DNA from: a virus
Reading direction: 5' to 3' (one strand)
Virus record (IMG/VR): IMGVR_UViG_3300046804_001782
Coordinates: 1 to 64,000 of that record
DNA: 64,000 nucleotides
Positions 152 through 17,721 of this stretch are shown one piece after another (the stretch's first letter is position 1; each line of letters begins with the position of its first letter). The translations under genes and the position numbers were made by a program. The notes beneath the pieces are model-generated. The model saw only the letters and a list, made by a program, of their open reading frames with translations. It ran no database searches and was not told the origin of the DNA.

Positions 152-610
152 CGCATCGCCCCCACCCCAGAACCGCTGGGGTGGGGTGCGGTGGACTAAC
201 GGTCTATGATCGTTAGTCCACCGTACCCCACCGCAAGGTGGGCGAGGCCACTACGCACACACGAATACAACGTGGGAACCTTTCGTCGTTGTGCTGCCGT
301 TCCGTTTCGACGGGACGACGCTGCAAACGTGGCACTGTCCAATCATCAGATACTGCCTTACCGTATAGGCGTAGAATCATATGGTGACCTAGCAAGTCGG
401 TCGTACAAGGCGACTCCAATGCTGTCTAAGGCCCCCTATGTATGTACGTTATTTAGTGCATATGTAGGGGGCCTTTATTGTTAGTGGCATCCCCCCGGTA
501 CCACTAACGAGTGTGTCCTACCCTTAGGGGTAGGGCATGCAGTATGCCCTAATAGGTCATAGTGCATGCCTTACCAATGAGGCATATTGACCATAAGGAG
601 GTCAATCGTT
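152..610 (+). ncRNA. Hairpin-dense structured non-coding region (putative ncRNA, leader or ssDNA element)
   Basis: At least 9 stems: 160-186, 183-229 (22 bp), 227-242 (GCAA loop), 298-317 (UUCG loop), 428-475 (20 bp), 480-508, 511-540, 566-585, 586-606; stem mismatches are G-U on + strand. Confidence 0.6.
307..341 (+). repeat. Dispersed 35-bp site, copy 1
   Basis: TCGAC-GGGAC-GACG-CTGCAAA-CGTG-GCACT-GTCCA. Confidence 0.85.
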
Positions 611-796
611 ATGGCTAATACCGTTGTCCACGCACCGACCGCACCATACAGGGTGTGGCGTGAGCGTGACACATTTGTGGTAATCGCCGCATGCGCCTGT
701 GGCGGCGATTGTGCCATGACCGCCACCGTCTACTCCGACCGCTTCTACACCCCCGATGGTGACCCGTGGGTGCCGAACAAGGAGGACAACCGCTGA
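611..796 (+). CDS. Hypothetical protein
   Basis: AAGGAGG SD at 595-601, ATG 611; TGATG coupling to next gene. Confidence 0.7.
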   Translation: MANTVVHAPTAPYRVWRERDTFVVIAACACGGDCAMTATVYSDRFYTPDGDPWVPNKEDNR

Positions 797-1044
797 TGTC
801 CATCACCATCCATACGCACGATGGGGTGCATTATGTGTACCCCGAGGATCTGACCCTTGATTGGGCCGACTTCCGGTACGACAACTACCGGCACGGTGAG
901 ACGACCGTGCTCCAACCGCAACTGGAAGCACTCGGCTTCACCGTTCACGGTTGGTACAGCGCAGAGGCCGATTCGTTTGGAGTCTTGGTGCGTGCGGCAA
1001 ATGCCACGTACCACGACATTCGTGTCAAGTTCGTTTACGGATGA
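796..1044 (+). CDS. Hypothetical protein
   Basis: GGAGG SD, TGATG overlap, MSITIHTHDG... Confidence 0.7.
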   Translation: MSITIHTHDGVHYVYPEDLTLDWADFRYDNYRHGETTVLQPQLEALGFTVHGWYSAEADSFGVLVRAANATYHDIRVKFVYG

Positions 1045-1055
1045 AAGGAACATAC

Positions 1056-1268
1056 ATGAAGGTTGCCATCGACCTGCCCCATCAGGTCGCATATCTGGAC
1101 GATATCGATATCGATATCCCCACCTATAGCAGGGGTAAGGCCCTTGTTATGGAGGGCCGTCGCTCGTCGGTGAAGCCGAAGCACTACCGGCTGTTCTGGT
1201 ACACAAACGAGGTGACGCGCTCGTTCCGTGATCGCAAGGAGCGGTACATCGACCGTAACAAGCGATAA
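1056..1268 (+). CDS. Hypothetical protein
   Basis: GAAAGGA SD, MKVAIDLPHQ... Confidence 0.7.
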   Translation: MKVAIDLPHQVAYLDDIDIDIPTYSRGKALVMEGRRSSVKPKHYRLFWYTNEVTRSFRDRKERYIDRNKR

Positions 1269-1275
1269 CGCTAAT

Positions 1276-1480
1276 CGTCCTGAGTATGACGTAAAAATGC
1301 TCAATGCTTACCGTTCGGGGCTTTCGACGGCGTAGCCCGATACGTTACGGGCATATCAGCATAGAGAAAGAGGGGCCATGCGCTGATATTCATTATTACG
1401 GTTTCGTCCACCTATAAACAGAACGGACGGCGCTTTTGCCCATTGGGGGCTTTACGGGTTCGACTCCCGAAATGTGCGCT
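1276..1480 (+). ncRNA. Putative structured RNA: H-type pseudoknot (1276-1303), further stems and a tRNA T-arm-like hairpin
   Basis: CGTC/GACG stem with loop TGAGTAT pairing ATGCTCA; ATATCAGC/GCTGATAT stem; CGGG-TTCGACT-CCCG near 1455-1469. Confidence 0.45.
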
Positions 1481-1548
1481 CTGATAACAAAACAGAAAGG
1501 AAAGGAATGCAATGCGTAACAAGCACATTGTTCACGCCAGCGATTGTG
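1481..1548 (+). repeat. Direct repeat copy A (leader, SD and first 12 codons)
   Basis: Near-identical to 2048-2110 (CTGATAACAAAACAGAAAGG...AACAAGCACATTGTTCACGCCAGCGATTGTG). Confidence 0.9.
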
Positions 1549-1850
1549 ACACGCTAACTGTGTCACGTTTGCACGGTATCATCATCAAGAGGGCAACGGC
1601 CCTCTCTCTTGGTGACATCATCATCAACCCGCCGTTTTTCATCGACGGAAAGTTGATGTGCGACTCGTACACGTTCCGTGTGACGGGTCTGCGTCATACG
1701 GGAGACGACGTACACGTGTGGGGCGACGACGGCTCGGAGTTCTCAACCTCCGACAACAACAGGGTTATCGTCTACCGTTCTGAGGACACAGAAGTAAAGC
1801 AAGCGGATCCTGAGTTGGAGCGCATGCTTGACCGGTTGGATAAGCAGTGA
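1512..1850 (+). CDS. Hypothetical protein
   Basis: ORF track, SD AAAGGA. Confidence 0.7.
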   Translation: MRNKHIVHASDCDTLTVSRLHGIIIKRATALSLGDIIINPPFFIDGKLMCDSYTFRVTGLRHTGDDVHVWGDDGSEFSTSDNNRVIVYRSEDTEVKQADPELERMLDRLDKQ

Positions 1851-2044
1851 GGATCACATTCCTCAAACATCCCGGTATGGGTAAGGCCATAAGGGAGTTG
1901 TTCTGTGGGCATTTGATTGACACAGAGCGCACTCTTTATGTGTTCCGTACCCATAAGGGTGAGTTGACCGAATGCCCACACGGCTGTGGGCCACAGAAGA
2001 CACGACATGTGCGGAACGCCGAAAACATCAAGGAGGCCCAGTAG
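1847..2044 (+). CDS. Hypothetical protein (C/H motif)
   Basis: GTGA overlap with previous gene. Confidence 0.55.
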   Translation: MRITFLKHPGMGKAIRELFCGHLIDTERTLYVFRTHKGELTECPHGCGPQKTRHVRNAENIKEAQ

Positions 2045-2047
2045 TGG

Positions 2048-2110
2048 CTGATAACAAAACAGAAAGGAATGACATGCATAACAAGCACATTGTTCACGCC
2101 AGCGATTGTG
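2048..2110 (+). repeat. Direct repeat copy B
   Basis: Matches 1481-1548. Confidence 0.9.
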
Positions 2111-2133
2111 CTGCCGGGGAGGTGACGGCATGA
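2074..2133 (+). pseudogene. Truncated duplicate of the 1512 gene start (19 aa MHNKHIVHASDCAAGEVTA)
   Basis: First 12 codons nearly identical to 1512..1850; ATGA-coupled to 2130 gene. Confidence 0.6.
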
Positions 2134-2288
2134 GCATCTTCCCCGAAGATGTGTGCCCTGAGTGTGTCCCCATGTGTGACACCTGCGACAAGCCTGCCAC
2201 GGAGGTACATGGTGGTACGGACTGGTTCTGCGCCGATCACTTTGAGCAGTTCCGAGCCGACCTGTTGGGAAAAGAGGATCAGCAATGA
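2130..2288 (+). CDS. Small Cys-rich Zn-binding hypothetical protein
   Basis: GGAGG SD; CPEC, CDTC, CxxH. Confidence 0.65.
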   Translation: MSIFPEDVCPECVPMCDTCDKPATEVHGGTDWFCADHFEQFRADLLGKEDQQ

Positions 2289-2485
2289 TCCTCAATGGCT
2301 TTTTCGTTACCTGCCCTGAGTGTAAGAAGTTGCACACAGCGGAGGTCAGACTCGTATGCACCTGTGGTGCATACGTCCCGACATGGGAGAAGCACTCTGA
2401 TGTTCCTACGAACATCAAAGCCATCATCCGCAAAGTTGTCGATAACTACGACAACATGAAGAAAATGGAGGAAGAACAATCATGA
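2285..2485 (+). CDS. Small Zn-ribbon hypothetical protein
   Basis: CPEC...CTCG; ATGA overlap. Confidence 0.65.
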   Translation: MILNGFFVTCPECKKLHTAEVRLVCTCGAYVPTWEKHSDVPTNIKAIIRKVVDNYDNMKKMEEEQS

Positions 2486-2604
2486 ATTGGAGAAACCCTT
2501 ACGGGTATCTGCCGATGACAATCACCGTGTACGGACTGTATGGGCTGTTCGTGGTGTTGTTCGCCGTTGCCGTGGTGCAACGAGTCAAGGACAAGAGGAA
2601 GTGA
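2482..2604 (+). CDS. 40-aa single-TM membrane protein (not in ORF track)
   Basis: MNWRNPYGYLPMTITVYGLYGLFVVLFAVAVVQRVKDKRK; ATGA and GTGA overlaps on both sides. Confidence 0.65.
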   Translation: MNWRNPYGYLPMTITVYGLYGLFVVLFAVAVVQRVKDKRK

Positions 2605-2885
2605 CGTGGGACTGCCCCGACTGTGTGTACGTCGGGGAACACAAGAACGAATGGGGAGTGTTCTCCCTTTTCGTCCACTATCGACCGGAGTACGACAAGC
2701 GGGAGATGGTGGCCGTCTATGGCTGTAATGACAGTGATTACCCTGATTACCAATCAGGGGAAGCCTGTGATTACAGACAAGCAGACAGAGATGGTTACAT
2801 TTCGCCCGTTCGTGTGGCATTAGAAAATGCCATCAAGTTGGGAGTTCCGGGGTTCACCCCGGACCTTATCAAGGAGGAAAGATGA
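2601..2885 (+). CDS. Hypothetical protein
   Basis: GTG start with GAGG SD, in frame with track ORF 2487..2885. Confidence 0.6.
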   Translation: MTWDCPDCVYVGEHKNEWGVFSLFVHYRPEYDKREMVAVYGCNDSDYPDYQSGEACDYRQADRDGYISPVRVALENAIKLGVPGFTPDLIKEER

Positions 2886-3082
2886 ATCCGAAATGGCAGG
2901 AAGGTGCGTGGTATACGCACATCAAGTATCCGGGGCGGCGGTTGCAGGTAACCAAAGTCATGGGAGACATGGCCGCTGGCTACGTCTACATTGGCATGGG
3001 CGAGTTCGGGAAGCGCCCATCGTGGTGGGCCATCACGCTGTCGCCAGAAGATTGGGATCTCTGTGAAGTTATTGCATCATGA
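2882..3082 (+). CDS. Hypothetical protein
   Basis: AGGAGG SD, ATGA overlap. Confidence 0.65.
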   Translation: MNPKWQEGAWYTHIKYPGRRLQVTKVMGDMAAGYVYIGMGEFGKRPSWWAITLSPEDWDLCEVIAS

Positions 3083-3618
3083 TACCTGATCATATTCAGG
3101 AAGCGGTTGCTAGGTATCGACCGCACGTTATCCCTGATAACAGGGAAGTAAGGGCGGGGGATATCCGCAACATACGTACGATGGACGGTAAGTACAGTCG
3201 TCTTGGTGTTGTTCTAAAGGTGAACAAACCGAGGGATGGCTATCCCGACACCATCGCACAGGTGACTCTGCTGCATCCTTATACAGAGTTGGCAACTAAC
3301 AGTGACGTTGTAGTAACTGGGGATCATAAGACAGTCCCCTATAACGTCGTCGTTGAAACGTTCCTATTAGGAATCGTATGGTTGTCTCAGTTGGGTCCTC
3401 TCGTGGGGACCATAAGCGAAGAGGCACTTGATTGTTGTTGGTCTGATAACAAACAGACCGATAACTGTTATCGAGGTACTCATTTGGCCGGTTCTCTTGA
3501 TTCCCGGTGGACATTCAAAGAGAACGAATTTGATGAGTTTGCATTGTTTACCGAGGACTCCACTAAATATATCCTTGATGAAGCAGACAGGTATTCCAAA
3601 CAAAGGAGACAGTCATGA
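3079..3618 (+). CDS. Hypothetical protein, possible PemK/MazF-like fold
   Basis: RAGDI...SRLGVVL...LSQLGPLVGTISEEAL spacing resembles MazF/PemK. Confidence 0.45.
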   Translation: MIPDHIQEAVARYRPHVIPDNREVRAGDIRNIRTMDGKYSRLGVVLKVNKPRDGYPDTIAQVTLLHPYTELATNSDVVVTGDHKTVPYNVVVETFLLGIVWLSQLGPLVGTISEEALDCCWSDNKQTDNCYRGTHLAGSLDSRWTFKENEFDEFALFTEDSTKYILDEADRYSKQRRQS

Positions 3619-3920
3619 CCAGCATCAACCCCGAATTCAACGGGGAGCAGCAGAAGCCCATGCACTTCTGCGCCGAAATCTCGTATGACACCCCGGACGG
3701 TAACGTCCACTCAGACATCTGTTTCTCCTGCACAGAAGACAGGTTGATGCAGGAGAAGTACAGGCAATTCATCCACGATTGCTTGGACGAGTGGCTGGAC
3801 AAGTCCAACGGGAGTGGAGCCTTTTGGCTCGCCGGTTGGGAATACTGGGACAGCCTCAAAAAGGAAACCATCGAAGACTACCTGACCGGATTGCTCCACA
3901 AGAACAGGGAGAAGAAGTGA
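3615..3920 (+). CDS. Hypothetical protein
   Basis: AAGGAG SD, ATGA overlap. Confidence 0.7.
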   Translation: MTSINPEFNGEQQKPMHFCAEISYDTPDGNVHSDICFSCTEDRLMQEKYRQFIHDCLDEWLDKSNGSGAFWLAGWEYWDSLKKETIEDYLTGLLHKNREKK

Positions 3921-4105
3921 AGAACATTGTTTTGTGGACTGTGATGCTTTTCAATGTATTACAGTTTTTTAGGTACTGGTTCGTCCAGACCTTTATCGTC
4001 AAAGTAGAACTGACGGAAGAAGAAGTACGTCGGTTCGTAAAACCATCGTGGCACATGCTTATGTATGGTGCTATTGCGATGTTCAGCGTGTACACCCTCG
4101 TATAA
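3917..4105 (+). CDS. Small two-TM membrane protein
   Basis: GTGA overlap; two hydrophobic segments. Confidence 0.6.
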   Translation: MKNIVLWTVMLFNVLQFFRYWFVQTFIVKVELTEEEVRRFVKPSWHMLMYGAIAMFSVYTLV

Positions 4106-4114
4106 GGAGACAAG

Positions 4115-4342
4115 GTGATCATCAAGCCTGATGAAGTACTCAGCGACTTCGTGGATCCTATCCACGCAGAGTCTGTGCGTTTCGTAAGGGAACGTATCAG
4201 ACCCGTAACGGAAATATTACAGCGTCGTACACAAACGTGGACGCTTTCAGAGATGCCACCTGACTGGGGTAGGTATCAACGTCGCCCGAAATCGCTTCGT
4301 AAGCGAAACAAATATCTGAGAAAGGAACATTATGCTCAGTAA
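4115..4342 (+). CDS. Hypothetical protein
   Basis: AAGGAG SD; basic C-terminus. Confidence 0.6.
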   Translation: MIIKPDEVLSDFVDPIHAESVRFVRERIRPVTEILQRRTQTWTLSEMPPDWGRYQRRPKSLRKRNKYLRKEHYAQ

Positions 4343-4589
4343 TCTGCCGCCCGGTGTGTCTGATAGGCACATCCCCGGATATGACAATGGTATCTATGAA
4401 GTAGATCCAATGTCAGATGAGGGCATGCAAATGCCCGTAGACGAGTGTCGTTGCACAGCGTGCAACACTCTCGTCGGCCCCTACACATGGGGTGATTCAT
4501 ATGCATCGTGGGATCCTTGTTGGGCTAACGACGAGGGAATCCTGTGGTGTGAAGAGTGTTACACAAGCATCATGGAACAAGGAGAATAA
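4332..4589 (+). CDS. Cys-rich acidic hypothetical protein
   Basis: SNLPPGV start, CTAC...CEEC. Confidence 0.65.
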   Translation: MLSNLPPGVSDRHIPGYDNGIYEVDPMSDEGMQMPVDECRCTACNTLVGPYTWGDSYASWDPCWANDEGILWCEECYTSIMEQGE

Positions 4590-4590
4590 A

Positions 4591-5145
4591 ATGCCCAACT
4601 GGTGTGGAAATACGCTTGTCATTCGTGGCCCAAAGGAAGACCGTGATACGTTTGTCAACGGTATTCCTATCTCAAATGAGAATAAGCCATTCAATTTCAT
4701 TGAGCACTACGTACCGCTTCCCGACGACATTGGTGACGGTTGGTATGACTGGGCCATTGAAAATTGGGGAACAAAGTGGGGTGACTGTGAGATGTCAGTT
4801 CTCCACCACAACGATAAGGAGACTGCTCTGGGATTCTCCACTGCTTGGGGACCGCCCATCCCGGCAATCATTACTATCTCCCAACTGTTTCCAACGTTGC
4901 AATTCGTACTCGCTTACGAAGAGGGAGGAATGTGCTTCTTGGGGGCAGTAGGCGTAGTTGGTGGTATGTGTGTGTATGACAAGTTCATTGAGGGTGCTGA
5001 ATATGAAAACCTGTATCCCGAACGGCAGGATTATGATGATGACATTGATACATACTACGAAAGTGGTTACGAAGCAGTTATTGAGGAACTCTCTCGCATT
5101 TCCGATGAAGCGTGGGAGCATCTGGGAAATGTCACATCAGTATGA
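4591..5145 (+). CDS. DUF1281/YubB ferredoxin-like domain protein
   Basis: MPNWCxNxL, WYDWxxxNWGTKW, FSTAWGPP, YEE motifs. Confidence 0.75.
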   Translation: MPNWCGNTLVIRGPKEDRDTFVNGIPISNENKPFNFIEHYVPLPDDIGDGWYDWAIENWGTKWGDCEMSVLHHNDKETALGFSTAWGPPIPAIITISQLFPTLQFVLAYEEGGMCFLGAVGVVGGMCVYDKFIEGAEYENLYPERQDYDDDIDTYYESGYEAVIEELSRISDEAWEHLGNVTSV

Positions 5146-5176
5146 CAGCGGCACGCTGCAAACGTGCCACCGTCCA
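5142..5176 (+). repeat. Dispersed 35-bp site, copy 2
   Basis: ATGAC-AGCGG-CACG-CTGCAAA-CGTG-CCACC-GTCCA, at stop of DUF1281 gene. Confidence 0.85.
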
Positions 5177-5199
5177 AACCAAAAGAAAGAGGTGCTCTA

Positions 5200-5601
5200 A
5201 TGAATTGCAAACAGTGTGATAAGAAACTGTATAAGCCGAGATATCAAATTGGTTTGTGCAGCACCTGTAAGCCAGATCGACATGCAAAAAGTAGTGGCAT
5301 TAGTGTTAGCCGCACTTGTGCAGCATGTAACAAAGCAATCAACAAGAGAAGCCACGGGACCGGATTGTGTTCTATTTGCGTGCGTAAGAGGCATACAGAA
5401 CACAATGACGTATACACATCATCAGACTTCAACCTGAGTAACTTGTCTTACGAAGAGCGTTGTCTTGTGTTTATGTGGGCGGCAGGGGTTGATATTTCAA
5501 CGTACTTTGATCCCCGTCAAATCAGTAAGTGGGAACGTGCTGGAACAGTACGAGTTGGTTACGATACAAAAAGCAACAGAGTTATGCGACACATGGGGTG
5601 A
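5200..5601 (+). CDS. Tandem Cys4 zinc-finger protein
   Basis: Two CxxC...GLCxxC units. Confidence 0.65.
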   Translation: MNCKQCDKKLYKPRYQIGLCSTCKPDRHAKSSGISVSRTCAACNKAINKRSHGTGLCSICVRKRHTEHNDVYTSSDFNLSNLSYEERCLVFMWAAGVDISTYFDPRQISKWERAGTVRVGYDTKSNRVMRHMG

Positions 5602-5603
5602 TT

Positions 5604-5804
5604 ATGAATTGCGTATATTGTGGTTGTGATATGCGACCAGAACGTGCAGAGTTGTATGACTACTGCACAAGCGAGGAATGCTACAAACAAGGATTCAAAC
5701 AATCCGAGTACGTGGTTCTGGGCGTGCATAAATCTACGCCTGTAATTTGTTCCGTTCGTGACACGTTGGTTACAGATAACCGTTCATATATGGTTACCAA
5801 ATGA
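5604..5804 (+). CDS. Small Zn-finger hypothetical protein
   Basis: CVYC...YCTSEEC. Confidence 0.6.
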   Translation: MNCVYCGCDMRPERAELYDYCTSEECYKQGFKQSEYVVLGVHKSTPVICSVRDTLVTDNRSYMVTK

Positions 5805-6055
5805 GCCAGCGTTACAACACAAACGGGCGCACACACGTCGCCCTCCTCATTGCCAAACACTTCGGCAAACCTTTTACGATTGATGATATGCAAAAGATAT
5901 CAGCATTGTTTGTTGATCGTAAACTTGCAAGTAAAGCATTGAACACCCTGAGAAACTGGGGATTCGTTGCCAAACTTGATGATAGTTGGTGCATCACCCG
6001 TGAGGGCGTAGAGCATCTGTATACAACAGCAAAAACCTATGCATCTAGAGATTGA
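5801..6055 (+). CDS. Winged-helix-like DNA-binding protein (paralog of 21823..22107)
   Basis: RTHVALL.AK.F.KPFT...WGF...WCIT..GV.HLY.TAKTY shared with paralog. Confidence 0.65.
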   Translation: MSQRYNTNGRTHVALLIAKHFGKPFTIDDMQKISALFVDRKLASKALNTLRNWGFVAKLDDSWCITREGVEHLYTTAKTYASRD

Positions 6056-6069
6056 GGGGAGGTTAGAAC

Positions 6070-6267
6070 ATGCTTGCATACTTCGCTAGTGATGGAAACT
6101 TTGGTGATGCCACCGACTTGGTGCTCATTGACGTATCCAACTTTACATCAGAAGATTGGGAAGAACTTGATATGGTTCCAGATAATGAGCGTCAGGAGCG
6201 TGCCATTGAGTTGGCAAAATCTTACAATCAAAATTCAGAAACAACCCATTACATTGGCAACTTCTAA
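6070..6267 (+). CDS. Acidic hypothetical protein
   Basis: SD present; D/E-rich. Confidence 0.65.
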   Translation: MLAYFASDGNFGDATDLVLIDVSNFTSEDWEELDMVPDNERQERAIELAKSYNQNSETTHYIGNF

Positions 6268-6275
6268 CCACAACA

Positions 6276-6309
6276 ACGATTGACACACATACTGTGTGTA
6301 TCGTATCTT
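6276..6309 (+). promoter_or_regulatory. Putative sigma70-type promoter overlapped by inverted repeat (operator)
   Basis: TTGACA 6280-6285, 18 bp, TATCTT 6304-6309; ACACACA-TAC-TGTGTGT palindrome 6283-6299. Confidence 0.5.
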
Positions 6310-6357
6310 TATAAAACCACCACAGCCCAGTAGGGCAGAAAGAAAAGGATAACCATC

Positions 6358-7602
6358 ATGGTGTCTGCAAAGCACCTCCATCAGGGTATGGCTGTTGTTA
6401 TCAACAGTGGTACCCACGTGGGACGTACAGCCAAAGTCATTGATCCCGAGGTTGTTCCTGACGGACAACTCAACCAGCGTAAGGTGTTGGTTGAGATTGA
6501 TGACCCGGATAACCCGTGGCGTGAATGGATCATTCCAAAGCAGTTGGATGTTCCGGGTATGCACCGACCGACTACTAAGTGGTCAGCAAGGACGACTATC
6601 GTTGATATGGATGTAACTCCTATCACGTCTTTGGATGATCCATCATTGGATCAGTTTCGCCCTCGTGGTAAGAACCTGATGAAGAAGTATGTATCACGTA
6701 CTCTGCCGGGTGGCATCAAGGATATTGATGCTCTGATGAAGTATTGGAGTAACCGTGATGATAACGGATACTCACTAAACGTGGGTATGGTTGGCGATAC
6801 TCAATCAGGCAAGACCATGCTTGTGGATGTAATGGCTCACGTGGTCGCTAAGGAAATGGGACTCAGCAAGCCGCTCCCGGTGTTTACATTGTCCGGTTCC
6901 TCCGGTATCACCGATTACGACCTGTTCGGCCAGCCGAGACAAGCATCAGACGGAACCGACAGGCTAGTGTGGATGGAAGGCATTGTCGCTAGGGCGTGTC
7001 GTGTTGGCGGTATCCTGTACCTTGACGAGGTAAATGCCATGCCCGGTAATGTTACTAGTGCCTTGCACCCCATTACAGATGATAGGCGGCAGTTCGTAAA
7101 CCTCCGTAAACCTGTACCCGACGGTCATGGTGGGTGGCAACCTGAGGTTGTCAATGTCAACCCCGACTTGTGGGTTATGTGTACATATAATCCCGGCTAC
7201 TCCGGCATGTCCAAAACCAATGAGGCATTTGCTAACCGCTTTGAGTGGTTGCAATGGGATTACGACGAGGAAGTCGAAGCCAAACTCATCAAGTCTCCTG
7301 CTATTCGCATGTTGGGTCAGGCTCTGCGCCTCGCCCGTGAGACACGTGCCATCACCACCCCCGTCGGTACATCTGCACTCCAGCGTCTGGAGCGCAACCT
7401 TATCAACGTAAGCACCGAGTATGCCCTGTGGGCATTCATGGGTCAGTTTACCTCTAAGACTGAGAAGTCTAAGGTGGATGCAATCCTGACTGATCGTGGT
7501 ATCAAGGGCCTGCTGGAGGCAGAGTTCAATCCTCCCGAGGTCAATACCGACGTTGTCGATGACGATACAAACAACTATGCCCCAGATACACAAATTATCT
7601 AA
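6358..7602 (+). CDS. MoxR-family AAA+ ATPase (CobS/NorQ-like) with N-terminal KOW/SH3-like region
   Basis: Walker A GDTQSGKT, Walker B LYLDEVN, TYNPGY, AFANRF. Confidence 0.85.
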   Translation: MVSAKHLHQGMAVVINSGTHVGRTAKVIDPEVVPDGQLNQRKVLVEIDDPDNPWREWIIPKQLDVPGMHRPTTKWSARTTIVDMDVTPITSLDDPSLDQFRPRGKNLMKKYVSRTLPGGIKDIDALMKYWSNRDDNGYSLNVGMVGDTQSGKTMLVDVMAHVVAKEMGLSKPLPVFTLSGSSGITDYDLFGQPRQASDGTDRLVWMEGIVARACRVGGILYLDEVNAMPGNVTSALHPITDDRRQFVNLRKPVPDGHGGWQPEVVNVNPDLWVMCTYNPGYSGMSKTNEAFANRFEWLQWDYDEEVEAKLIKSPAIRMLGQALRLARETRAITTPVGTSALQRLERNLINVSTEYALWAFMGQFTSKTEKSKVDAILTDRGIKGLLEAEFNPPEVNTDVVDDDTNNYAPDTQII

Positions 7603-9645: not shown

Positions 9646-9650
9646 ACACA

Positions 9651-10354: not shown

Positions 10355-10713
10355 ATAACAAAGTTGAGCATGTTGATTGGCTACATTCCCTTATGCAAGA
10401 GTTAGAAAATAATGATATTGAGTTGCCTATCGGTGACTATTATTCCGTATATGAGGTGCTTGAGTCTTTGCGTGAGCATCTGCTAAACACTGAAATAGAC
10501 CCACTTGACGTTGTTTCGTTAGGCGAAACACTGTACGAAATCTACGAGAAAGACGGCAAATCTGGTGTATATGCATATGTTAATGCTCATTACCCAGATT
10601 GGGCTTGGGGTTACTGTTGGCTTTGTGACTGTGAGTCACCGGCTATGCCAGACGGTTACTGCGCCGTTTGTTGGGGTGAAAAAGTACAACTGGAAAATGG
10701 AGAAACAAACTGA
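10351..10713 (+). CDS. Hypothetical protein with C-terminal Cys4 ribbon
   Basis: CWLC...CAVC; ATGA overlap. Confidence 0.65.
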   Translation: MNNKVEHVDWLHSLMQELENNDIELPIGDYYSVYEVLESLREHLLNTEIDPLDVVSLGETLYEIYEKDGKSGVYAYVNAHYPDWAWGYCWLCDCESPAMPDGYCAVCWGEKVQLENGETN

Positions 10714-10714
10714 A

Positions 10715-10855
10715 ATGATTAAAGAGTATGAAGAAGAACTTGGAGAGTGTGACTCTTGTGGATCAACATACGTTATTGGTTCCGATGATCACTGCGGGGA
10801 ATGCGGTTGTTGTTGGGGCCATTGTTGGCATGTAGAAAAGATGGAGGATGAGTAA
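10715..10855 (+). CDS. Small Cys/His-rich protein
   Basis: MIKEYEEELGECDSC...HCGECGCCWGHC. Confidence 0.55.
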   Translation: MIKEYEEELGECDSCGSTYVIGSDDHCGECGCCWGHCWHVEKMEDE

Positions 10856-11187
10856 TGGGTGCTGATTTTATTGGAGGCTATGTACACGTAGCCAAGACCA
10901 GACAAAAAGCGTACGATGCATTGGAAGCAATTGATGCATCTCGTATCGCCATGCATTTGATAAACGCTGGCCTCAGCGTAGAAGAGACTGAGTACACGGT
11001 ACGAGAACAGGCGTTCGATTATGTAAACATGGTCTACGATGCTTACGAAGGTTACCGTCGTGATGGGGACGTATGGATCATTGATGATAAAACGTATGTC
11101 GTCACAGGTGGCATGTCATGGGGTGATTCACCAACCGAATTATGGGACGCGGTAGTGGCGGTATCGGCATTAGGGATAACCCACTAA
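10855..11187 (+). CDS. Hypothetical protein
   Basis: TAATG overlap; TGGMSWGD motif. Confidence 0.7.
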   Translation: MGADFIGGYVHVAKTRQKAYDALEAIDASRIAMHLINAGLSVEETEYTVREQAFDYVNMVYDAYEGYRRDGDVWIIDDKTYVVTGGMSWGDSPTELWDAVVAVSALGITH

Positions 11188-11223
11188 TATGGTTTACATA
11201 CATACAAACGAAAGGATAGCAAA

Positions 11224-11532
11224 ATGACTACACGTTCAACAAGCATGGTTGTAAACGAAATTATGAAACTCATAGAAAACGAGGATGAGGCAATCCATCT
11301 ATACCATGCTCTTGCTCAACATTTTGGATGGCAGGGAACATTTTGGACATTTGAAGATGTTGAGTCAGTCTGGCAGGATTGTTATGCCGATCAACAGATT
11401 CCCATGCCTTTGGATGTCTGGGAAGAGGTACAAAACAACTGGTACTGGCGTCGTGGGTTGGTAGAACGCATGAGCGAAGCAGGAAGTGACTTAGTATATG
11501 AAGCGGTTCGTGAAGTAGTGGAGGGTAAGTAA
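11224..11532 (+). CDS. Hypothetical protein
   Basis: AAAGGA SD. Confidence 0.7.
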   Translation: MTTRSTSMVVNEIMKLIENEDEAIHLYHALAQHFGWQGTFWTFEDVESVWQDCYADQQIPMPLDVWEEVQNNWYWRRGLVERMSEAGSDLVYEAVREVVEGK

Positions 11533-12338
11533 TGGCAACACAACCACAGCGTAATTTGATTAACACGCTTGTCAGTGCTCGCAGAACGGCACTTGAAGCA
11601 AACCCGGAGTTTATGGATGAAATTGTTAAAGCCTTACCCGAGGATGTACATTGGAAAGAGGCTAGCAAAGTCATTGAACGACTCAAGACTCTACCTTGTG
11701 ATGCACGAGCAGATGAAGACATTGATGCTGTTCGTGATCTTGTAAAGGATATCAAAGACACATGGCTTAGACTAACAGTTCCTGACATTATCAAACGATT
11801 TGACTCTGGCGGTGCGCTGTCTGACAAGCAACGAGAGGTACTCAGGAGAGGACTTGAAGACGCACTTAAAGCACCTCTTGAACAAGGCATTTACAAAATG
11901 AATGACGAGTATTACCGGGTAACTAAGACCAAGGCTGACCACCACAAGTTGGTTGCTCGCAAATTGGTAATGCGTTCTATGGGTGATCTTCGTTACTGTG
12001 AGTTTCATTACTCCAAAGATGCTTTGTATAAACTCACTCCTGACATGCGTGTGTCTGAAGAAGAGGCCCGTGCCTTTGGTCACAAATTCAAGTTGTGTTG
12101 CAATTGTGGTGAACCTATCGGGTATGGTGACAAGCGAGGAACCCTGATGTCCTACGCTGTTGGATACGGGCCGGTGTGTGCATCACGTAATAATTGGTCT
12201 TATCCCAAGAATGTTCAAGAAGCAATCGACATCTGTCACCGCCTCAATCTCACACACCCTTTACTCACTCTTGTTGATGCTGGTAAAAGCATTGACGAGG
12301 CTGAGGCAGAACTTAGTAATGAACAACAAGTAAACTAA
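11532..12338 (+). CDS. DUF6011-like zinc-finger protein
   Basis: CCNCGEPI...SYAVGYGPVCA. Confidence 0.6.
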   Translation: MATQPQRNLINTLVSARRTALEANPEFMDEIVKALPEDVHWKEASKVIERLKTLPCDARADEDIDAVRDLVKDIKDTWLRLTVPDIIKRFDSGGALSDKQREVLRRGLEDALKAPLEQGIYKMNDEYYRVTKTKADHHKLVARKLVMRSMGDLRYCEFHYSKDALYKLTPDMRVSEEEARAFGHKFKLCCNCGEPIGYGDKRGTLMSYAVGYGPVCASRNNWSYPKNVQEAIDICHRLNLTHPLLTLVDAGKSIDEAEAELSNEQQVN

Positions 12339-12356
12339 CCACCACGAAAGATTACT

Positions 12357-13820
12357 ATGACAACATTTGATGAACTATTGGATCAGTTGAAGAAACCATC
12401 CAGTGCTAGTATTCCCAAACTACAGGTACCAGTACTGAACTTACCGCTTCTTCCATATCAAGAGGAAGCGGTGGGGTTTGCCCTCCAACGTGGAGAAACG
12501 TATCTAGCACTGGACATGGGTTTGGGAAAGACCGCATGTGCCATCGCTATTGCAGTAGCAGAAGTCGGTGCAGGAAATGCCCCGGTTGGCGTGTGCGTAC
12601 CACCTAGTTTGAGAATCAACTGGGAACGGGAGTTTCTGAAGTTTGCTCCCCACATTCGTGTAAAAACGATTAAGGGAAATAAACCTTATGACGTAAGCGG
12701 TGCAGACGTTATCGTATTTGGCGATAGCGTATTGTCCTCTTGGGCTTGTGCGGATCCTCAGAAGAGAAGCCCCTACGATCTTCATGGAAAGATTAAGGCA
12801 CTCATTGTCGATGAGGCTCATCGACACAAGAACAATTCAAGCAGGGCTAAGTCTTTAAGCAGTCTTGCAAAGACAGTGCGTGGAAGACGAGTACTGTTGT
12901 CTGGTACTCCCATACCCAACGGTAGAACGGTTGAAATTGTTAACCAACTAAATGTTTTGGGTGACAATGCTTGGGCGGCTATCGGTGGTATGGGTAAGTT
13001 TTGGCAATACTATGCACCAAAACAATCGTACGGTCGTGGCTCTGTAGACCTTGAGGGTCTTGGTGATGTAATGCGATCAACGTTCATGCTCAGGAAACGC
13101 CGTGACGAAGTACTAGACCTTCCAAACAAGGGACGTTCAGCGATCATTCTGGAGGGTCATGGTGATGGGATCCGTAAGTATATTGAGATTGAAAATGATC
13201 TCATTGCGTTCCTCCAGAAAGAGGGACGAGAATGGCGTGGTGCTGCCCGTAATGAGACATTGGTAAAACTGAATCTCATGAGGGCTGCTGCCGGTGAATC
13301 CAAGGTACGAGCACTTATTGAACACATCACTGACATGATGGATACACCGGGAGGTGTGTTCGTGGTGGCCGAACACAATCTAGTAATGGATAACCTCGTT
13401 ATGGGATTATATAAGCACGGCGTTGTCTGTATTAGAGGTGGAATGTCTGACAATGACAAAGCGGAAGCTATGGATGCATTCAACACGGGAAGAGCACGTA
13501 TATTGGTTGGCCAAATTACGTCTGCCGGTACCGGTTTTACATTGCATGGCAACGGACTAAATCACCGTGTTGTAATCGCTCAGATACCTTGGACACCTGC
13601 TGAACTTCGTCAGGCAGAAGACAGGCTGCATCGAATTGGGCAGACACACGATGTAACCGTTGAGGTGGCATTGTGTCATATCGAAAACAAACTTACCATT
13701 GATGAACGCTTGTGGAGTGTTTTGGAAAGCAAAGCATTTGATACAGGCCGTCTTATTGATGGTATGGGTGAGTACTTACTCAGTGAGGTTCAGGAGAGCA
13801 TTATTGACTCGTATCGCTAG
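12357..13820 (+). CDS. SNF2-family (SMARCAL1-like) helicase
   Basis: DMGLGKT, DEAH, LSGTP, QAEDRLHRIGQ. Confidence 0.9.
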   Translation: MTTFDELLDQLKKPSSASIPKLQVPVLNLPLLPYQEEAVGFALQRGETYLALDMGLGKTACAIAIAVAEVGAGNAPVGVCVPPSLRINWEREFLKFAPHIRVKTIKGNKPYDVSGADVIVFGDSVLSSWACADPQKRSPYDLHGKIKALIVDEAHRHKNNSSRAKSLSSLAKTVRGRRVLLSGTPIPNGRTVEIVNQLNVLGDNAWAAIGGMGKFWQYYAPKQSYGRGSVDLEGLGDVMRSTFMLRKRRDEVLDLPNKGRSAIILEGHGDGIRKYIEIENDLIAFLQKEGREWRGAARNETLVKLNLMRAAAGESKVRALIEHITDMMDTPGGVFVVAEHNLVMDNLVMGLYKHGVVCIRGGMSDNDKAEAMDAFNTGRARILVGQITSAGTGFTLHGNGLNHRVVIAQIPWTPAELRQAEDRLHRIGQTHDVTVEVALCHIENKLTIDERLWSVLESKAFDTGRLIDGMGEYLLSEVQESIIDSYR

Positions 13821-13832
13821 TTGTTGTATAAC
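13804..13832 (+). promoter_or_regulatory. Putative sigma70-type promoter
   Basis: TTGACT-17 bp-TATAAC, running into repeat copy 4. Confidence 0.45.
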
Positions 13833-13863
13833 CTACGCCACGCCGCAAACGTGGCTCAGTCCA
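13829..13863 (+). repeat. Dispersed 35-bp site, copy 4
   Basis: TAACC-TACGC-CACG-CCGCAAA-CGTG-GCTCA-GTCCA, just after SNF2 stop. Confidence 0.85.
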
Positions 13864-13876
13864 AAAAGGAATACCA

Positions 13877-14059
13877 ATGGAAAACAAAACTGTATGGGTT
13901 TGTGATACGTGTGGAAGTGACGCTGTTTACTTTGATGCATATGTAAATGTAAATGACATCCAAGACATCCGAGTGTTTGATTACACAATGTGTGATGTTT
14001 GTGGTGGAGAAACAACCATTAGAGAAATTAACGTAGAAGAAATGGATACATGCAAATGA
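13877..14059 (+). CDS. Small Zn-ribbon protein
   Basis: CDTCGS...CDVCG. Confidence 0.65.
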   Translation: MENKTVWVCDTCGSDAVYFDAYVNVNDIQDIRVFDYTMCDVCGGETTIREINVEEMDTCK

Positions 14060-14418
14060 CAATCACCAAGAAGCAAGAAAAAGTGCTTGACAAGTACCTC
14101 TCTCTGCGAGAAGAATATGAAATGCTCAAGCAAATCATGGAAGAAACAGAGGATGAAATCAAAAACATTCTCCGAGAGATTGATGGACACACCGTTAAGT
14201 GGGGCGGTCATCAATTTACACTGGTTGAAGCGGAACGTAGGTCGTTCGATGCTTCAGCACTCAAAGAGTTAGTTAGTAACTCCGTGTTTAGAAAAGTTAC
14301 AGAACCGGTGGTTAAAACAACACTCATTGACGCTGCTGTTAAAATTGGTACGATTCAACCAGAGGTAGTAGATGCTATTACTTCTATTACACCTTACACA
14401 CAACTGAGGGTAAAGTGA
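14050..14418 (+). CDS. Coiled-coil phage protein (Gam/Gp157-like; resembles 35345..35779)
   Basis: N-terminal coiled coil, ERRSFD, FRKVTEPVV. Confidence 0.5.
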   Translation: MQMTITKKQEKVLDKYLSLREEYEMLKQIMEETEDEIKNILREIDGHTVKWGGHQFTLVEAERRSFDASALKELVSNSVFRKVTEPVVKTTLIDAAVKIGTIQPEVVDAITSITPYTQLRVK

Positions 14419-14579
14419 CTAAAAACGCAGTAACGTGGGTATGTACCGTGTGTTCAAACAAAGTGACCACATTGGTAACGCTCTCAGAACCTCCCGTCTG
14501 TAATAACAACCATCTTCGTGGTGGGAGAGTAATGAAGAAAGTACAGGAAACCAATAGTGAGGAACAAAACAATGAATAA
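14415..14579 (+). CDS. 54-aa Zn-ribbon protein (not in ORF track)
   Basis: MTKNAVTWVCTVC...PPVCNNNH; GTGA overlap. Confidence 0.55.
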   Translation: MTKNAVTWVCTVCSNKVTTLVTLSEPPVCNNNHLRGGRVMKKVQETNSEEQNNE

Positions 14580-14745
14580 TAAGGTTAGCATTGAGGATGT
14601 AATGGCTTGGTTGCAGTCAAAACACACTACAATGTGGGGCGGTAACGGTTGGACTGTCACGAAAGAAGATACTTGTAGACAGGCTGCTGACTGGTTTGTA
14701 TCTCAAATCAATGACCTATACGATTGGAAGAACAATGCACAATGA
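14572..14745 (+). CDS. Hypothetical protein
   Basis: GAGGA SD. Confidence 0.55.
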   Translation: MNNKVSIEDVMAWLQSKHTTMWGGNGWTVTKEDTCRQAADWFVSQINDLYDWKNNAQ

Positions 14746-15085
14746 TACCCACAGTGCTGTTGAGGAAATCAAACGCCTCAGAAAGATTAACAAGCAACTA
14801 CGAAACATCGTAATGAATGCTAATGATCCCCACAGCAATGATTGCTACGGAGTTCTAGTCGATGATCCTACACCGGTATGCACGTGTGGGTATGACGACG
14901 TAGTTCGTGACTCAATAATGGTAACTACGGAATGTGATGACTGTGATCCTAAACTTGTCGATTTCCTAGCCGCATCCCTTACCGACGTTATTGGTAAGCA
15001 TGTTCCAGAGAACGAGCAGAATAATTGGAATAACGTACTGCTTATGTACATTAACTACAAAGAAGGAAATAAAAACAATGAGTAA
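14735..15085 (+). CDS. Hypothetical protein
   Basis: EEIKRLR coil, HxxxC...CTCG. Confidence 0.6.
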   Translation: MHNDTHSAVEEIKRLRKINKQLRNIVMNANDPHSNDCYGVLVDDPTPVCTCGYDDVVRDSIMVTTECDDCDPKLVDFLAASLTDVIGKHVPENEQNNWNNVLLMYINYKEGNKNNE

Positions 15086-16094
15086 TACCACGGTATTAGT
15101 GACCGGGGCTTCGGGATTCGTGGGACACCACGTCGTGGAGCACCTTTTGGAGAACACCGATTGGGACGTAATAGGAACGTATACATATCAACATCGTGGT
15201 GATCCGTGGAGGTTGAAGCACCTAGCAGACAACCCTCGTCTAAAGTTGGTTCGCATGGATTGCGCTGCCCCGTTTGGATCACTTAGTGATGCCTTTGATA
15301 ATGTAACAGTTGATTATGTGCTGCATATTGCTGCCGACTCACATGTTGATCGCAGCATCACTGATCCAGTTCCTTTCATCCGCAACAATGTTGACCTTAC
15401 GTTGTTCACTTTGGAGTGGGCACGACAAGCCAAGCCGAAACTGTTCATACAGTTCAGCACTGATGAGGTATATGGCCCTGCACCAGCAGGTGTGCAACAT
15501 GAGGAATGGTCGCCAATCGTTCCTAGCAATCCTTACAGTGCTAGTAAGGCGGCACAGGAAGCAATCGCCATTTCTTACTGGCGCACCTATGACATTCCAC
15601 TCATTATCACTAACACCATGAACGTCATTGGAGAGCGTCAGGACGTTGAGAAGTTCGTGCCGATGCTCATTCGTGGCGCACAGACTGGTGAAAGCGTTAC
15701 GATTCATGCGGATGATGAGGAACGACCCGGTAGCAGATACTACATCCACGCACGTAATGTGGCTGATGCTCTCTTATTTATTATCAATAAGTATAAGGAT
15801 GAAGACATCCTCTATCGTGAGCGTCTTCGTGATAAACCTCCTCGCTTCAATGTCGTTGGAGAGATGGAGATGGACAACCTTACGATGGCGTTCAAGGTTG
15901 CTGATGCTGTTGGAAAGACGCTTAACTATAAACTAGTAAACTTTCACGCTGCACGTCCCGGCCATGACCGCAGGTATGCACTAGATGGTGCTAAGTTAGC
16001 CAACCTCGGATGGGTACCTCCGGTAGACATTGATACGTCTATTCGTCGCACCGTAAATTGGGAACTTAATAACAGGTGGAAAGACAATGATTAA
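15078..16094 (+). CDS. rfbB: dTDP-glucose 4,6-dehydratase (RmlB/RfbB-like extended SDR)
   Basis: GASGFVG, AADSHVDRSI, STDEVYG, YSASK, RPGHDRRYA. Confidence 0.9.
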   Translation: MSNTTVLVTGASGFVGHHVVEHLLENTDWDVIGTYTYQHRGDPWRLKHLADNPRLKLVRMDCAAPFGSLSDAFDNVTVDYVLHIAADSHVDRSITDPVPFIRNNVDLTLFTLEWARQAKPKLFIQFSTDEVYGPAPAGVQHEEWSPIVPSNPYSASKAAQEAIAISYWRTYDIPLIITNTMNVIGERQDVEKFVPMLIRGAQTGESVTIHADDEERPGSRYYIHARNVADALLFIINKYKDEDILYRERLRDKPPRFNVVGEMEMDNLTMAFKVADAVGKTLNYKLVNFHAARPGHDRRYALDGAKLANLGWVPPVDIDTSIRRTVNWELNNRWKDND

Positions 16095-16545
16095 AACAGT
16101 TTCTCAGTATCAATACGAGTATTGGGAATTCCTAAAGGATAGGGGATGGAAGATGATTCCGTCCCCTATCTCTTTGGGCACTGCCAATACGGATCTAAAC
16201 AAAAAAACTATAAACGTAAGACCATCAGTGTTTGCACAACCCTCTATAAGAGTAGTACGGTATGTCATACCTCACGAGATTTGGCATGCTCTACATGGAG
16301 AACTTTTAGATTACATGTGCATGACACTCCGCACGCAACGACGGTTGACTGCAAAATCAGCAATTGAGGTGGTTGCCGATAGTGGATGTTTGTTTATGGA
16401 TGATTCACGAGCCATGAATACATGGGTACGGTCTTCCGTTATGTGGCATGGTCGGGTAGGGTATAGATACTCAATGTCAGACGTACGTTCAAAAGAAGCA
16501 CTGGATCTAGTAAACATGTTGGATGCGGAGGCCCGCCGTGGCTGA
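16087..16545 (+). CDS. Putative zinc metallopeptidase
   Basis: HEIWH (HExxH) and downstream EVVAD. Confidence 0.6.
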   Translation: MIKTVSQYQYEYWEFLKDRGWKMIPSPISLGTANTDLNKKTINVRPSVFAQPSIRVVRYVIPHEIWHALHGELLDYMCMTLRTQRRLTAKSAIEVVADSGCLFMDDSRAMNTWVRSSVMWHGRVGYRYSMSDVRSKEALDLVNMLDAEARRG

Positions 16546-16738
16546 TTTTGAATATACAATTCATGGACCAATGTGGCAATATAAGTGTGAAAGTTGTCAT
16601 GCTATGGGCGATTGCTGGGATACCGAGCAAGAAGCAATAGATGATATGAACGATCACGATTGTATAACATACTGGAAGAGCCGCATACCTCCCAGTGTTC
16701 TTGAAGAACTTATTAATCAAAGGAAACATGATGACTGA
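16538..16738 (+). CDS. Hypothetical protein
   Basis: GGAGG SD, GTG start, CESC. Confidence 0.55.
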   Translation: MADFEYTIHGPMWQYKCESCHAMGDCWDTEQEAIDDMNDHDCITYWKSRIPPSVLEELINQRKHDD

Positions 16739-17015
16739 AAAGATAAACTTTGTTTATGAATGGGAGTATGGTGAGGATACAGGTACCTATTTATGCGTAG
16801 GTCAGGTATTCATTCTTGGAGTTCAGTACACCGAAGAGTATGGTGGATACTGGTCGATGTGTTGGGATAACGAACCATCAGACCCACGTTGGGGAGAACA
16901 ACAGTTAGAAATCTCTTCAGAAGCAATACACCCAACCATTGACCAAGCAATGGATTGGTGCGAAGAAATGGATATGAAAGAAGCCGACTACGACGCTGCT
17001 CAGTTTGAGCAGTAA
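16728..17015 (+). CDS. Acidic hypothetical protein
   Basis: AAGGA SD. Confidence 0.6.
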   Translation: MMTEKINFVYEWEYGEDTGTYLCVGQVFILGVQYTEEYGGYWSMCWDNEPSDPRWGEQQLEISSEAIHPTIDQAMDWCEEMDMKEADYDAAQFEQ

Positions 17016-17029
17016 AAGAAAGAATAACC

Positions 17030-17536
17030 ATGATTAAGGATTCCTATAGCAACCCACCATTTTACAAGTACGACTGGGATTTAGTTATGTGGGCAAACCC
17101 ATTGCCAAATGACTTGGTCGCCTTGTACGAACTATGTGAAAGCGTAAGAGTTACGTTTACCAAACACCTTCGTGTACTTCTAGAGAACGGTGGAAACCTA
17201 GACGATGCCCCACCGTGGCGGCAGTGGTTGTGGGACTTTGCAGTTGTTAAGTCACAATTCACACAAGAAGAAGAATTTGAAGAAGGTACTTACTTGGCAT
17301 TCCTAGACTTTGAAAATATTGGTAAGTACGTACACGATGATCGAATGTTTGAGTCTATGACAGAAGAAGAAATGGAAGAACATTTTGAAATGTTAAACAG
17401 AGTAGAGGACATGCTGAATGAGATCATGAACAATGACGCATATGCGAAATCTCTGCTTAATGTACAAAAACGTTCTGAGGAAATTGATGAACTAAACGAG
17501 TTGTTTAACTCTTCAGGAAGTGGAGATACCGAATGA
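17030..17536 (+). CDS. Acidic hypothetical protein
   Basis: ORF track; E-rich C-terminus. Confidence 0.65.
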   Translation: MIKDSYSNPPFYKYDWDLVMWANPLPNDLVALYELCESVRVTFTKHLRVLLENGGNLDDAPPWRQWLWDFAVVKSQFTQEEEFEEGTYLAFLDFENIGKYVHDDRMFESMTEEEMEEHFEMLNRVEDMLNEIMNNDAYAKSLLNVQKRSEEIDELNELFNSSGSGDTE

Positions 17537-17721
17537 ACGACGACAACATAAGCCAACTGGTGGATGAGATCATCAACGGAATAAAGGGTCAGAGCATTGT
17601 GTCTTCTATAGAGATGGTTGACGCACTTCTTGATATCAGGAATGCCGCTGTGTCAATGGAGCAGGAACTTCAGCAACTACTGGACGCAAACAAACCGCAA
17701 ACGTGTGGCTGTCCAGAATGA
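17533..17721 (+). CDS. Hypothetical protein
   Basis: ATGA overlaps at both ends. Confidence 0.6.
   Translation: MNDDNISQLVDEIINGIKGQSIVSSIEMVDALLDIRNAAVSMEQELQQLLDANKPQTCGCPE
17681..17715 (+). repeat. Dispersed 35-bp site, copy 5
   Basis: TGGAC-GCAAA-CAAA-CCGCAAA-CGTG-TGGCT-GTCCA, 2 bp before HNH ATG. Confidence 0.85.

Follow-up and report, generated by a model that had tools for sequence, protein, structure and literature searches.

A co-oriented 35-bp pseudo-palindromic element confined to the early arm of uncultured freshwater phages, probably actinophages

Oriented sites that occur in several copies offer one of the few ways to study how entire genome arms are organised in phages, and three phage systems are among the described ones closest to the element presented here. 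The stoperators of Cluster A phages are asymmetric 13-bp sites that are bound by a monomeric immunity repressor and occur in more than 20 copies on both arms of a temperate genome, and those of the L5 type lie in short intergenic gaps and are oriented with transcription (PMC9283540). Stoperators accounted for genome-wide silencing in one actinophage cluster. The nick sites of T5, of phiKMV-like phages and of tf lie on one strand in few copies with an uneven distribution (PMC3517423), and these nicks are still unexplained decades after their discovery. In T4-type phages, PeSL elements consist of a sigma-70 promoter and a terminator hairpin and yield mini-circles (PMC2839356). The subject of this report is a 35-bp element that was found five times, always in the same orientation, in 64,000 nt of viral DNA of freshwater metagenome origin (positions 1-64,000 of the IMG/VR record IMGVR_UViG_3300046804_001782; this whole stretch is called the window below).

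The pattern GCAAACGTG-N5-GTCCA has exactly five matches in the window, all on the + strand, at 323, 5158, 9667, 13845 and 17697, against 0.00 matches expected by dinucleotide shuffling; the original prediction, made by reading the window, had listed the same five. It had also found no copy in the remaining DNA, and indeed no extra copy was detected at up to two mismatches in the window or at up to one mismatch in the full record of 76,480 bp. These five sites are also the only ones recovered in the window by a covariance model that was trained on 57 members of the family. The alignable similarity among the copies stops at about 35 bp, and since the flanks cannot be aligned beyond this point, the sites are regarded as short words and not as repeats of a mobile element. 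All five are located in the early arm, which comprises the + strand genes from position 1 to about 19.3 kb; the remainder of the genome is on the - strand. The sites are as follows:

Site 1, 307-341, + strand: core at 323-341; non-coding, between the hairpins at 177-235 and 428-475; 37.3 bits.
Site 2, 5142-5176, + strand: overlaps the stop codon of the open reading frame (ORF) ending at 5145, 23 nt before the ATG at 5200; 42 bits.
Site 3, 9651-9685, + strand: after the CobT-like gene (end at 9645), 26 nt before the ArdA-like gene (ATG at 9712).
Site 4, 13829-13863, + strand: after the SNF2 helicase gene (end at 13820), 13 nt before the zinc-ribbon/Lar-like ORF starting at 13877.
Site 5, 17681-17715, + strand: in the last codons of the ORF 17533-17721, directly 5' of the HNH gene.

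Copies 2-5 are situated in or at short gaps between + strand ORFs, which agrees with their predicted position at gene junctions, and the end of GTCCA is separated from the next start codon (5200, 9712, 13877 and 17718 or 17730, respectively) by 23, 26, 13 and 2 (or 14) nt. Site 5 is orthologous across the whole clade and is its most conserved site.

About 40 related uncultured freshwater contigs were found in IMG/VR, at first via the motif and then via the HNH protein encoded next to site 5. Five of them (G001-G004 and G006, 87-96 kb) are near-complete and colinear with the window; their late genes are 65-76% identical, and the early arm is mostly not alignable. No close nucleotide relative was present among 50,697 cultured phage records, and at the protein level cultured phages gave only distant matches, to actinophage HNH and CobT-like genes. 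Each complete genome carries 5-8 sites, all on the sense strand of the early arm (about 19 kb), and no confident site was found in the remaining 70-75 kb or so. A scan of relatives with a covariance model had been proposed together with the prediction, and the motif proved to be kept: a model trained on 57 distinct sites, with matches accepted to E 0.05, gave 95 matches, of which 94 lie within HNH-oriented loci, 94/94 on the + strand, with the reservation that training on motif-selected sites inflates the information content of the right half and that the site counts of the relatives depend on the model. The 95th match was weak and lay on the - strand of an unrelated contig, and the loci of distant HNH homologues contained no sites by this model.

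A pattern with 17 specified bases was then compared with 2.9 million viral contigs, and 31 of the 32 matching stretches belonged to this clade. In 596 Gb of prokaryote genomes, a single full-motif match was obtained (L196, 6091-6126, - strand). It sits within a gene for a family 2 glycosyltransferase (GT2) in a metagenome-assembled genome of Candidatus Nanopelagicales, on a contig without homology to the phage, and is probably due to chance; Nanopelagicales are a plausible host group for low-GC freshwater actinophages. Owing to this single match, judged to be chance, a reading of the sites as a host regulon was rejected. The clade specificity therefore points to a phage-encoded reader and not to a general host factor. 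Because the early-arm sense-strand sites are conserved and near-exclusive to the clade, the element is considered to be functional, polar, arm-specific and clade-private. Taken from sequence comparison, the roughly 40 contigs, the strict co-orientation and the arm confinement support the proposal of a previously undescribed, conserved cis-element that is limited to the early arm.

The family consensus reads T(A/G)GAC-N8-CGnyGCAAnCGTG-N5-GTCCAA. Its left T(A/G)GAC box was outside the search pattern, and nevertheless 46, 45 and 50 of the 57 sites have its G (position 3), A (4) and C (5), respectively; the A following GTCCA is also kept in 50/57. GAC is present in four of the five left arms of the window and the full TGGAC in copy 5, just as had been noted. 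The site 5' of the HNH gene, which can be found via the protein independently of the motif, shows the same blocks in 19 distinct versions. The centres of the blocks are at about 3, 13.5, 23.5 and 33.5, with GCAA in between, and since this spacing of about 10 bp is close to one turn, the blocks would lie on one face of the helix. The left box persists even where the approximately 25 nt between GAC and GTC cannot pair, so that a protein contact to duplex DNA could account for the left GAC, whereas an RNA helix of 3 bp cannot.

The 14-7-14 architecture that had been proposed for the sites is real for the consensus but not for each copy, as individual sites form 9-10 of the 14 pairs in the window and 4-14 of 14 in the family. 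In the 14-7-14 register, 58.9% of cells are paired, compared with about 36% after sliding of the partner; with the letters shuffled inside each column, pairing was 57.5 +/- 0.8%, and covariation measures were no better than in shuffles. A separate test of the N5 positions counted 110 pairs versus 100 +/- 6.5. Because pairing equals that of the column shuffles yet falls when the register is slid, the consensus is palindromic without covariation. The combinations GGCACG/CGTGCC and GCCACG/CGTGGC reported for copies 2 and 4 are present. A hairpin shared at the RNA level had been another candidate and was not recovered: RNAalifold gave no consensus structure for the sites, an Rfam scan of window positions 1-20,000 gave nothing at them, and on the + strand A-C mismatches (87) exceed G-T pairs (58).

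Individual copies can fold to different extents. Perfect palindromes of 13-14 bp are limited to the first sites of G002, G003 and G006. In the window, site 3 is the sole copy able to form a long near-perfect hairpin (-31.8 kcal/mol, z -7.7), and its 17-bp stem is obtained only after a shift by 5 columns; by inspection, the register of good stems varies between copies, with offsets of 0, +5 or +8 columns. A 7-bp inner stem with the loop AAnCGTG does beat the column shuffles, as 0-2 of 500 shuffles reach it and cells with both sides changed number 32 versus 20.9 +/- 3.6, a signal that comes largely from two clades of the HNH site and that related sequences can yield without structure. The orthologous HNH site of the G001 clade forms 7/14 pairs and no stable stem, with all sequence blocks retained. 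A shared covarying fold, as expected of a structured RNA, was not found, and the weak support for one was limited to the 7-bp inner stem. It is concluded that the common feature is most probably a pseudo-palindromic recognition site in duplex DNA, and that some copies can fold as well.

With the stoperators of Cluster A phages (L5 gp71, Bxb1, TipsytheTRex), the element shares its multiple copies, the location in short gaps, the orientation with transcription, the restriction to one lineage and an actinophage-type genome. In contrast to the 13-bp repressor sites present in more than 20 copies on both arms, it is a 35-bp pseudo-palindrome with 5-8 copies in one arm, its clade has no recognised immunity repressor or integrase, and some copies are coding or adjacent to a terminator. 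The nicks of T5, phiKMV and tf are similar with regard to the single strand, the handful of unevenly distributed copies in one part of the genome and the long consensus; moreover, the nick consensus of phiKMV has an N5 spacer too, and tf shares convergent arms with the genomes analysed here. However, known nick sites are non-palindromic, are not restricted to one arm, belong to phages of Gram-negative hosts and have no HNH enzyme tied to them. Like PeSL elements, it consists of repeated words between non-essential early genes, where homology between relatives often breaks; unlike for PeSL, no promoter consensus, shared hairpin or circles were found, and promoter-like and terminator-like matches were not enriched, with none inside the repeats. 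In having inverted arms that flank an asymmetric centre of 7 bp, and in its total length of about 35 bp, the element resembles loxP, FRT and dif, from which it differs in its one degenerate arm, its several direct copies, the lack of an encoded recombinase and the lack of products in contigs.

The source record (76,480 bp) is 81% complete according to CheckV and is labelled G000. Only two DNA runs, from one freshwater sample, contain the stretch, both available as contigs only, and no RNA run is listed as containing it. Besides small ORFs of unknown function, the + arm encodes a CobS-like AAA+ ATPase, CobT-like, ArdA-like and Lar/zinc-ribbon proteins, an SNF2 helicase, a sugar dehydratase, the HNH endonuclease, a DenV-type glycosylase, WhiB and a dCMP deaminase. 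A replication set is encoded on the - strand (PolA, a second SNF2 helicase, primase, DnaB-like helicase, loader, initiator, RecA and ThyX), and presumably the structural genes are located there as well. The two WhiB genes and the best distant matches in Mycobacterium and Gordonia phages suggest an actinobacterial host, and the clade probably consists of actinophages. The genomes look lytic, as the search for an integrase was negative and none of the proteins was recognised as an immunity repressor.

Most sites in the clade occupy short intergenic gaps and face along transcription, and many stop 0-26 nt short of a Shine-Dalgarno sequence. Two separate clades have a site 10-12 nt 5' of the terminator (19-20-bp stem and T-run) that closes the + arm:

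Sites before the arm terminator: G001 at 24984; G004 at 28750; contigs L143, L147 and L156.

Coding sequence can hold the element too. In the G001 and L143 clades a site constitutes codons 2-13 of the helicase gene, and in several genomes one is found in frame about 200 nt into the ATPase gene, where it forms part of a linker whose protein sequence is hypervariable. The CobS-like ATPase itself (window 6358-7602 and homologues) has a hypervariable linker of 25-35 residues following a conserved N-terminal domain. Since some sites precede the arm terminator, lie within genes or stand between hairpins, they are not promoters as a class. No conserved -10/-35 set was seen: apart from the left box itself, which reads TAGACT in 20/57 sites, no TANNNT or -10-like element has a fixed offset across the sites. 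TANNNT is the actinobacterial -10 pattern. In five genomes, neither a T7-type RNA polymerase (PF00940, searched without a positive control) nor a sigma-70 region 2 was found. A sigma-54-like reading of the reverse complement was rejected, because the spacing from GG to GC is 16 and not 12 (determined by hand), and so was a sigma-70 -35/-10 reading of TTGAC-like left boxes, because nothing -10-like follows 16-18 bp downstream.

As potential partners of the sites, the following genes come into consideration:

HNH / His-Me finger endonuclease gene, 17718-18197, + strand: candidate partner, as nickase or binder.
HTH_17 (AlpA/excisionase-type) gene, 20318-20617, - strand: protein of 99 aa, core, in all five compared genomes; possible alternative binder.
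WhiB-family genes, 18638-18904 (+ strand) and 20544-20927 (- strand): at the convergent junction of the two arms.
wHTH gene, 5801-6055: further candidate binder.

Both WhiB genes and the HTH_17 gene at the arm junction are conserved in relatives. Within the clade the HNH protein shows 67-73% identity and belongs to the best-conserved early proteins, and every relative examined has a site just 5' of its gene, usually 11-12 nt before the start codon. The protein has matches in HNH phrogs and in PF05551, an I-PpoI-type zinc loop, and comparison with PDB sequences gave weak I-PpoI-type matches only (E 0.16). The AlphaFold model has a mean predicted local distance difference test (pLDDT) score of 59.5, is confident only in the N-terminal 30 residues or so and in a long C-terminal helix, and is too poor for a fold comparison.

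Protein-binding or nicking sites, both among the candidates of the original prediction, remain the best class of explanation. Tentatively, and well short of an even chance, the sites are read as polar recognition sites in duplex DNA for a protein encoded by the clade, by which transcription of the early arm would be controlled in a stoperator-like manner. A phage protein, probably as a dimer or via two domains, would bind the sites and read the strong half GCAAnCGTG-N5-GTCCAA together with the weak half, T(A/G)GAC and CG, on one face of the helix. Distributed over the sense strand, from the arm start via gene junctions and coding linkers that tolerate them to the arm end, the sites would serve as orientation-dependent roadblocks or operators that act on transcription under way and gate or shut off early genes; their spread over a 19-kb unit could allow a fast shut-off of polymerases already moving. 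The polarity of the sites points to a machine moving along the DNA, and control of early-arm transcription might fit because of the arm confinement, the best sites at the start and the preference for short gaps. In G002, G003 and G006, the most perfect palindromes cluster at the arm start, just as operators cluster at early promoters.

Several observations weigh against control of transcription by such a protein. No binding protein has been pinned down, and the genomes look lytic. Stoperators occur in both arms and measure 13 bp; the present sites measure 35 bp and occur in one arm. A roadblock is not needed before the arm terminator or between two hairpins, as is the case for site 1, and the constant HNH neighbour suits nicking better. 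Furthermore, the 7-bp inner stem shows some covariation in another register, and some of the sites form highly stable hairpins that include G-U pairs on the + strand, so that certain copies may act at the RNA level. If the sites are ordinary operators, they would be a modest addition to phage regulation. All the same, the element is polar, arm-confined, kept within genes, paired with a conserved endonuclease gene and private to a widespread freshwater clade, and with five 35-bp sites and a few candidate proteins it is a compact, testable system in which to study the gating or marking of early genes by a lytic actinophage.

Alternatively, the sites might be strand-specific nicks in one strand of the early arm, made in virion or replicating DNA by the adjacent HNH protein, which is a possible but doubtful explanation. 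It draws on the traits shared by known nick systems, namely 4-14 sites per genome on one strand, uneven clustering, a long consensus (with the N5 spacer in phiKMV) and positions partly conserved among relatives, and on the HNH gene, which follows a site in every relative examined and whose product, conserved at 67-73% identity, has matches to HNH phrogs and PF05551. The tolerance of sites in coding DNA (ATPase linker, helicase codons 2-13) and beside terminators would fit a mark on the DNA that is set without regard to gene signals. However, known nick sites are not limited to one arm, the nicking genes of T5 map to the late region (PMC3517423), and a pseudo-palindrome with perfect copies at the arm start is more typical of a regulator. 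The co-occurrence of HNH gene and site is inseparable from clade membership. Contig ends are not piled at the sites, and only L016 starts within a few bases of one; as a proxy for nicks, contig ends were dropped as uninformative. With similar doubt, the early arm may be conceived as a physically marked DNA domain in which a dedicated HNH protein, encoded next to a site of its own, would bind the oriented sites and nick one strand or act as a polar barrier to polymerases. If true, sites and enzyme could be named together for the first time in a nick or barrier system defined by sequence, and the system would also be the first beyond phages of Gram-negative hosts. By analogy, a protein bound to the sites could also act as a Ter-like polar barrier that stops replication forks entering the arm against the direction of transcription, although this is distinctly improbable. 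In Tus-Ter and RTP-Ter, each oriented site is composed of a strong and a weak half, and several co-oriented back-up copies act on a translocating machine. The strong and weak halves of the co-oriented sites recall this layout, two clades have a site at the 3' boundary of the arm beside a convergent terminator, and the phage supplies a replisome of its own (PolA, DnaB-like helicase, primase and RecA). On the other hand, the element has no sequence or protein similarity to these terminators, no Ter-binding protein was recognised, and G000, G002 and G006 are without a site at the very end of the arm. To our knowledge, neither terminators of the Tus-Ter or RTP-Ter type nor Ter-like fork barriers have been described for phages.

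An element acting at the RNA level, that is, a stem-loop with a conserved loop and a 3' tail that serves as a signal for processing, stability, translational control or antitermination, is unlikely. The orientation along transcription, the many sites 0-26 nt before a Shine-Dalgarno sequence, the strong hairpins of site 3 and of the first sites of G002, G003 and G006 with their G-U pairs on the + strand, and the excess of the inner 7-bp stem (loop AAnCGUG) over column shuffles (32 versus 20.9) would be in line with it. This is opposed by the missing common register of the stems, the negative RNAalifold and Rfam results, the 14-7-14 stem without covariation, the surplus of A-C mismatches over G-T pairs and the G001-clade HNH site, in which the blocks are intact at 7/14 pairs; in addition, copies inside genes would cut or block their own mRNAs. 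That the sites are phage-specific promoters of early operons is very improbable. They are conserved, co-oriented and mostly just 5' of genes, and the TAGACT left box in 20/57 fits TANNNT, but sites 10-12 nt before the arm terminator, in helicase codons 2-13 or in mid-gene, the lack of a -10-like element at constant distance in the full set, the absence of a T7-type RNA polymerase and of sigma-70 region 2 from the five genomes, and the absence of the motif from host-type genomes speak against it. Equally remote is a function as gene-cassette recombination sites, be it by site-specific recombination (loxP/dif/attC-like) or by homologous exchange (PeSL-like), which had been among the predicted functions together with a division of the arm into modules of about 4-5 kb. 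The 14-7-14 layout of the consensus would suit it, and between genome pairs 5/25 ends of homology blocks lie within 20 nt of a site, versus about 0.6 expected uniformly. As about one in seven gene junctions carries a site, this excess is close to what is expected if breaks occur at any junction, so that block ends do fall at sites but not in excess over gene junctions. In L153, an additional gene for a Myb/sigma-70 region 4-like DNA-binding protein is inserted directly after a site (5861-6199), but the 13-17-nt repeat flanking the insert derives from the ribosome-binding region and not from the 35-bp site. The left arm keeps only T(A/G)GAC and CG, unlike the arms of tyrosine-recombinase sites, and five direct copies would cause deletion of the arm. 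The predicted absence of a recombinase from the window extends to the full record and four complete relatives: PF00589 (Phage_integrase) was absent and PF00239 (Resolvase) absent above cut-off, so that no cognate tyrosine or serine enzyme is found among the phage-encoded proteins. Finally, no joints, loose ends or breaks at sites, and hence no joined or excised forms such as deletions or circles, were seen when the two contig-only runs were compared with positions 1-20,000 (contigs drop rare variants), and one continuous contig of about 50 kb spans sites 2-5 in the runs carrying the phage.

The gaps between the five sites (4835, 4509, 4178 and 3852) form a near-arithmetic series with steps of -326, -331 and -326, which under naive null models is reached by 1/658,008 subsets of junctions and 0/2,000,000 random placements. 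No such series exists in the five relatives, where the gaps are 0.46-4.9 kb (module size proposed for the window: about 4-5 kb); for this reason the series is treated as a coincidence of a large scan and not as a property of the system. A reading of the spacing as a DNA spool was rejected because of an estimated misfit to capsid geometry and the absence of the pattern in relatives.

Copy 1 is surrounded by a non-coding stretch of about 450 nt (152-610) that is rich in strong hairpins, and position 612 is the start of the first ORF that has a strong ribosome site. The following features were noted in this stretch:

Inverted repeat with 28-nt arms, 177-235: upstream of site 1.
Perfect palindrome TGGAC-N19-GTCCA, 192-220, no strand: within the inverted repeat 177-235; has the outer half-sites of the element without the core.
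Terminator-like 20-bp hairpin with T-rich tail, 428-475, + strand: 86 nt downstream of site 1.

Further small palindromes were observed near the first sites of other genomes. In relatives with higher GC content, the first copies of the element, which are perfect, have palindromes of the type CCTAATCATTAGG or CTAGTCACTAG on their flanks:

CCTAATCATTAGG/CTAGTCACTAG-type palindromes: G002 at 27,760-27,830 and 29,900-29,930; G003 at about 12,100-12,190; G006 at about 540-560.

An operator-like palindrome of the GTGACA/TGTCAC type, GTGACAC-N7-GTGTCAC, is present near the arm start of the window (about 1540-1572). In G001 (L129, about 11,570-11,620), GTGTCACATATGTCACAC is read on the - strand just after the first site, a palindrome which we take to be CRP/GlxR-like. 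The GTGACA/TGTCAC palindromes may be a second regulatory motif.

The genes directly 3' of sites 3 and 4 (9712-10065 and 13877-14059) resemble anti-restriction functions; the product of the former is ArdA-like (E 2e-4, below the Pfam cut-off) and that of the latter is a Lar-like zinc ribbon with a weak match. In contigs of the source sample, 378 bases at window positions 16984-17363 are skipped or replaced, within the acidic, repeat-rich ORF 17030-17536, and this length variant is a population polymorphism without relation to the sites.

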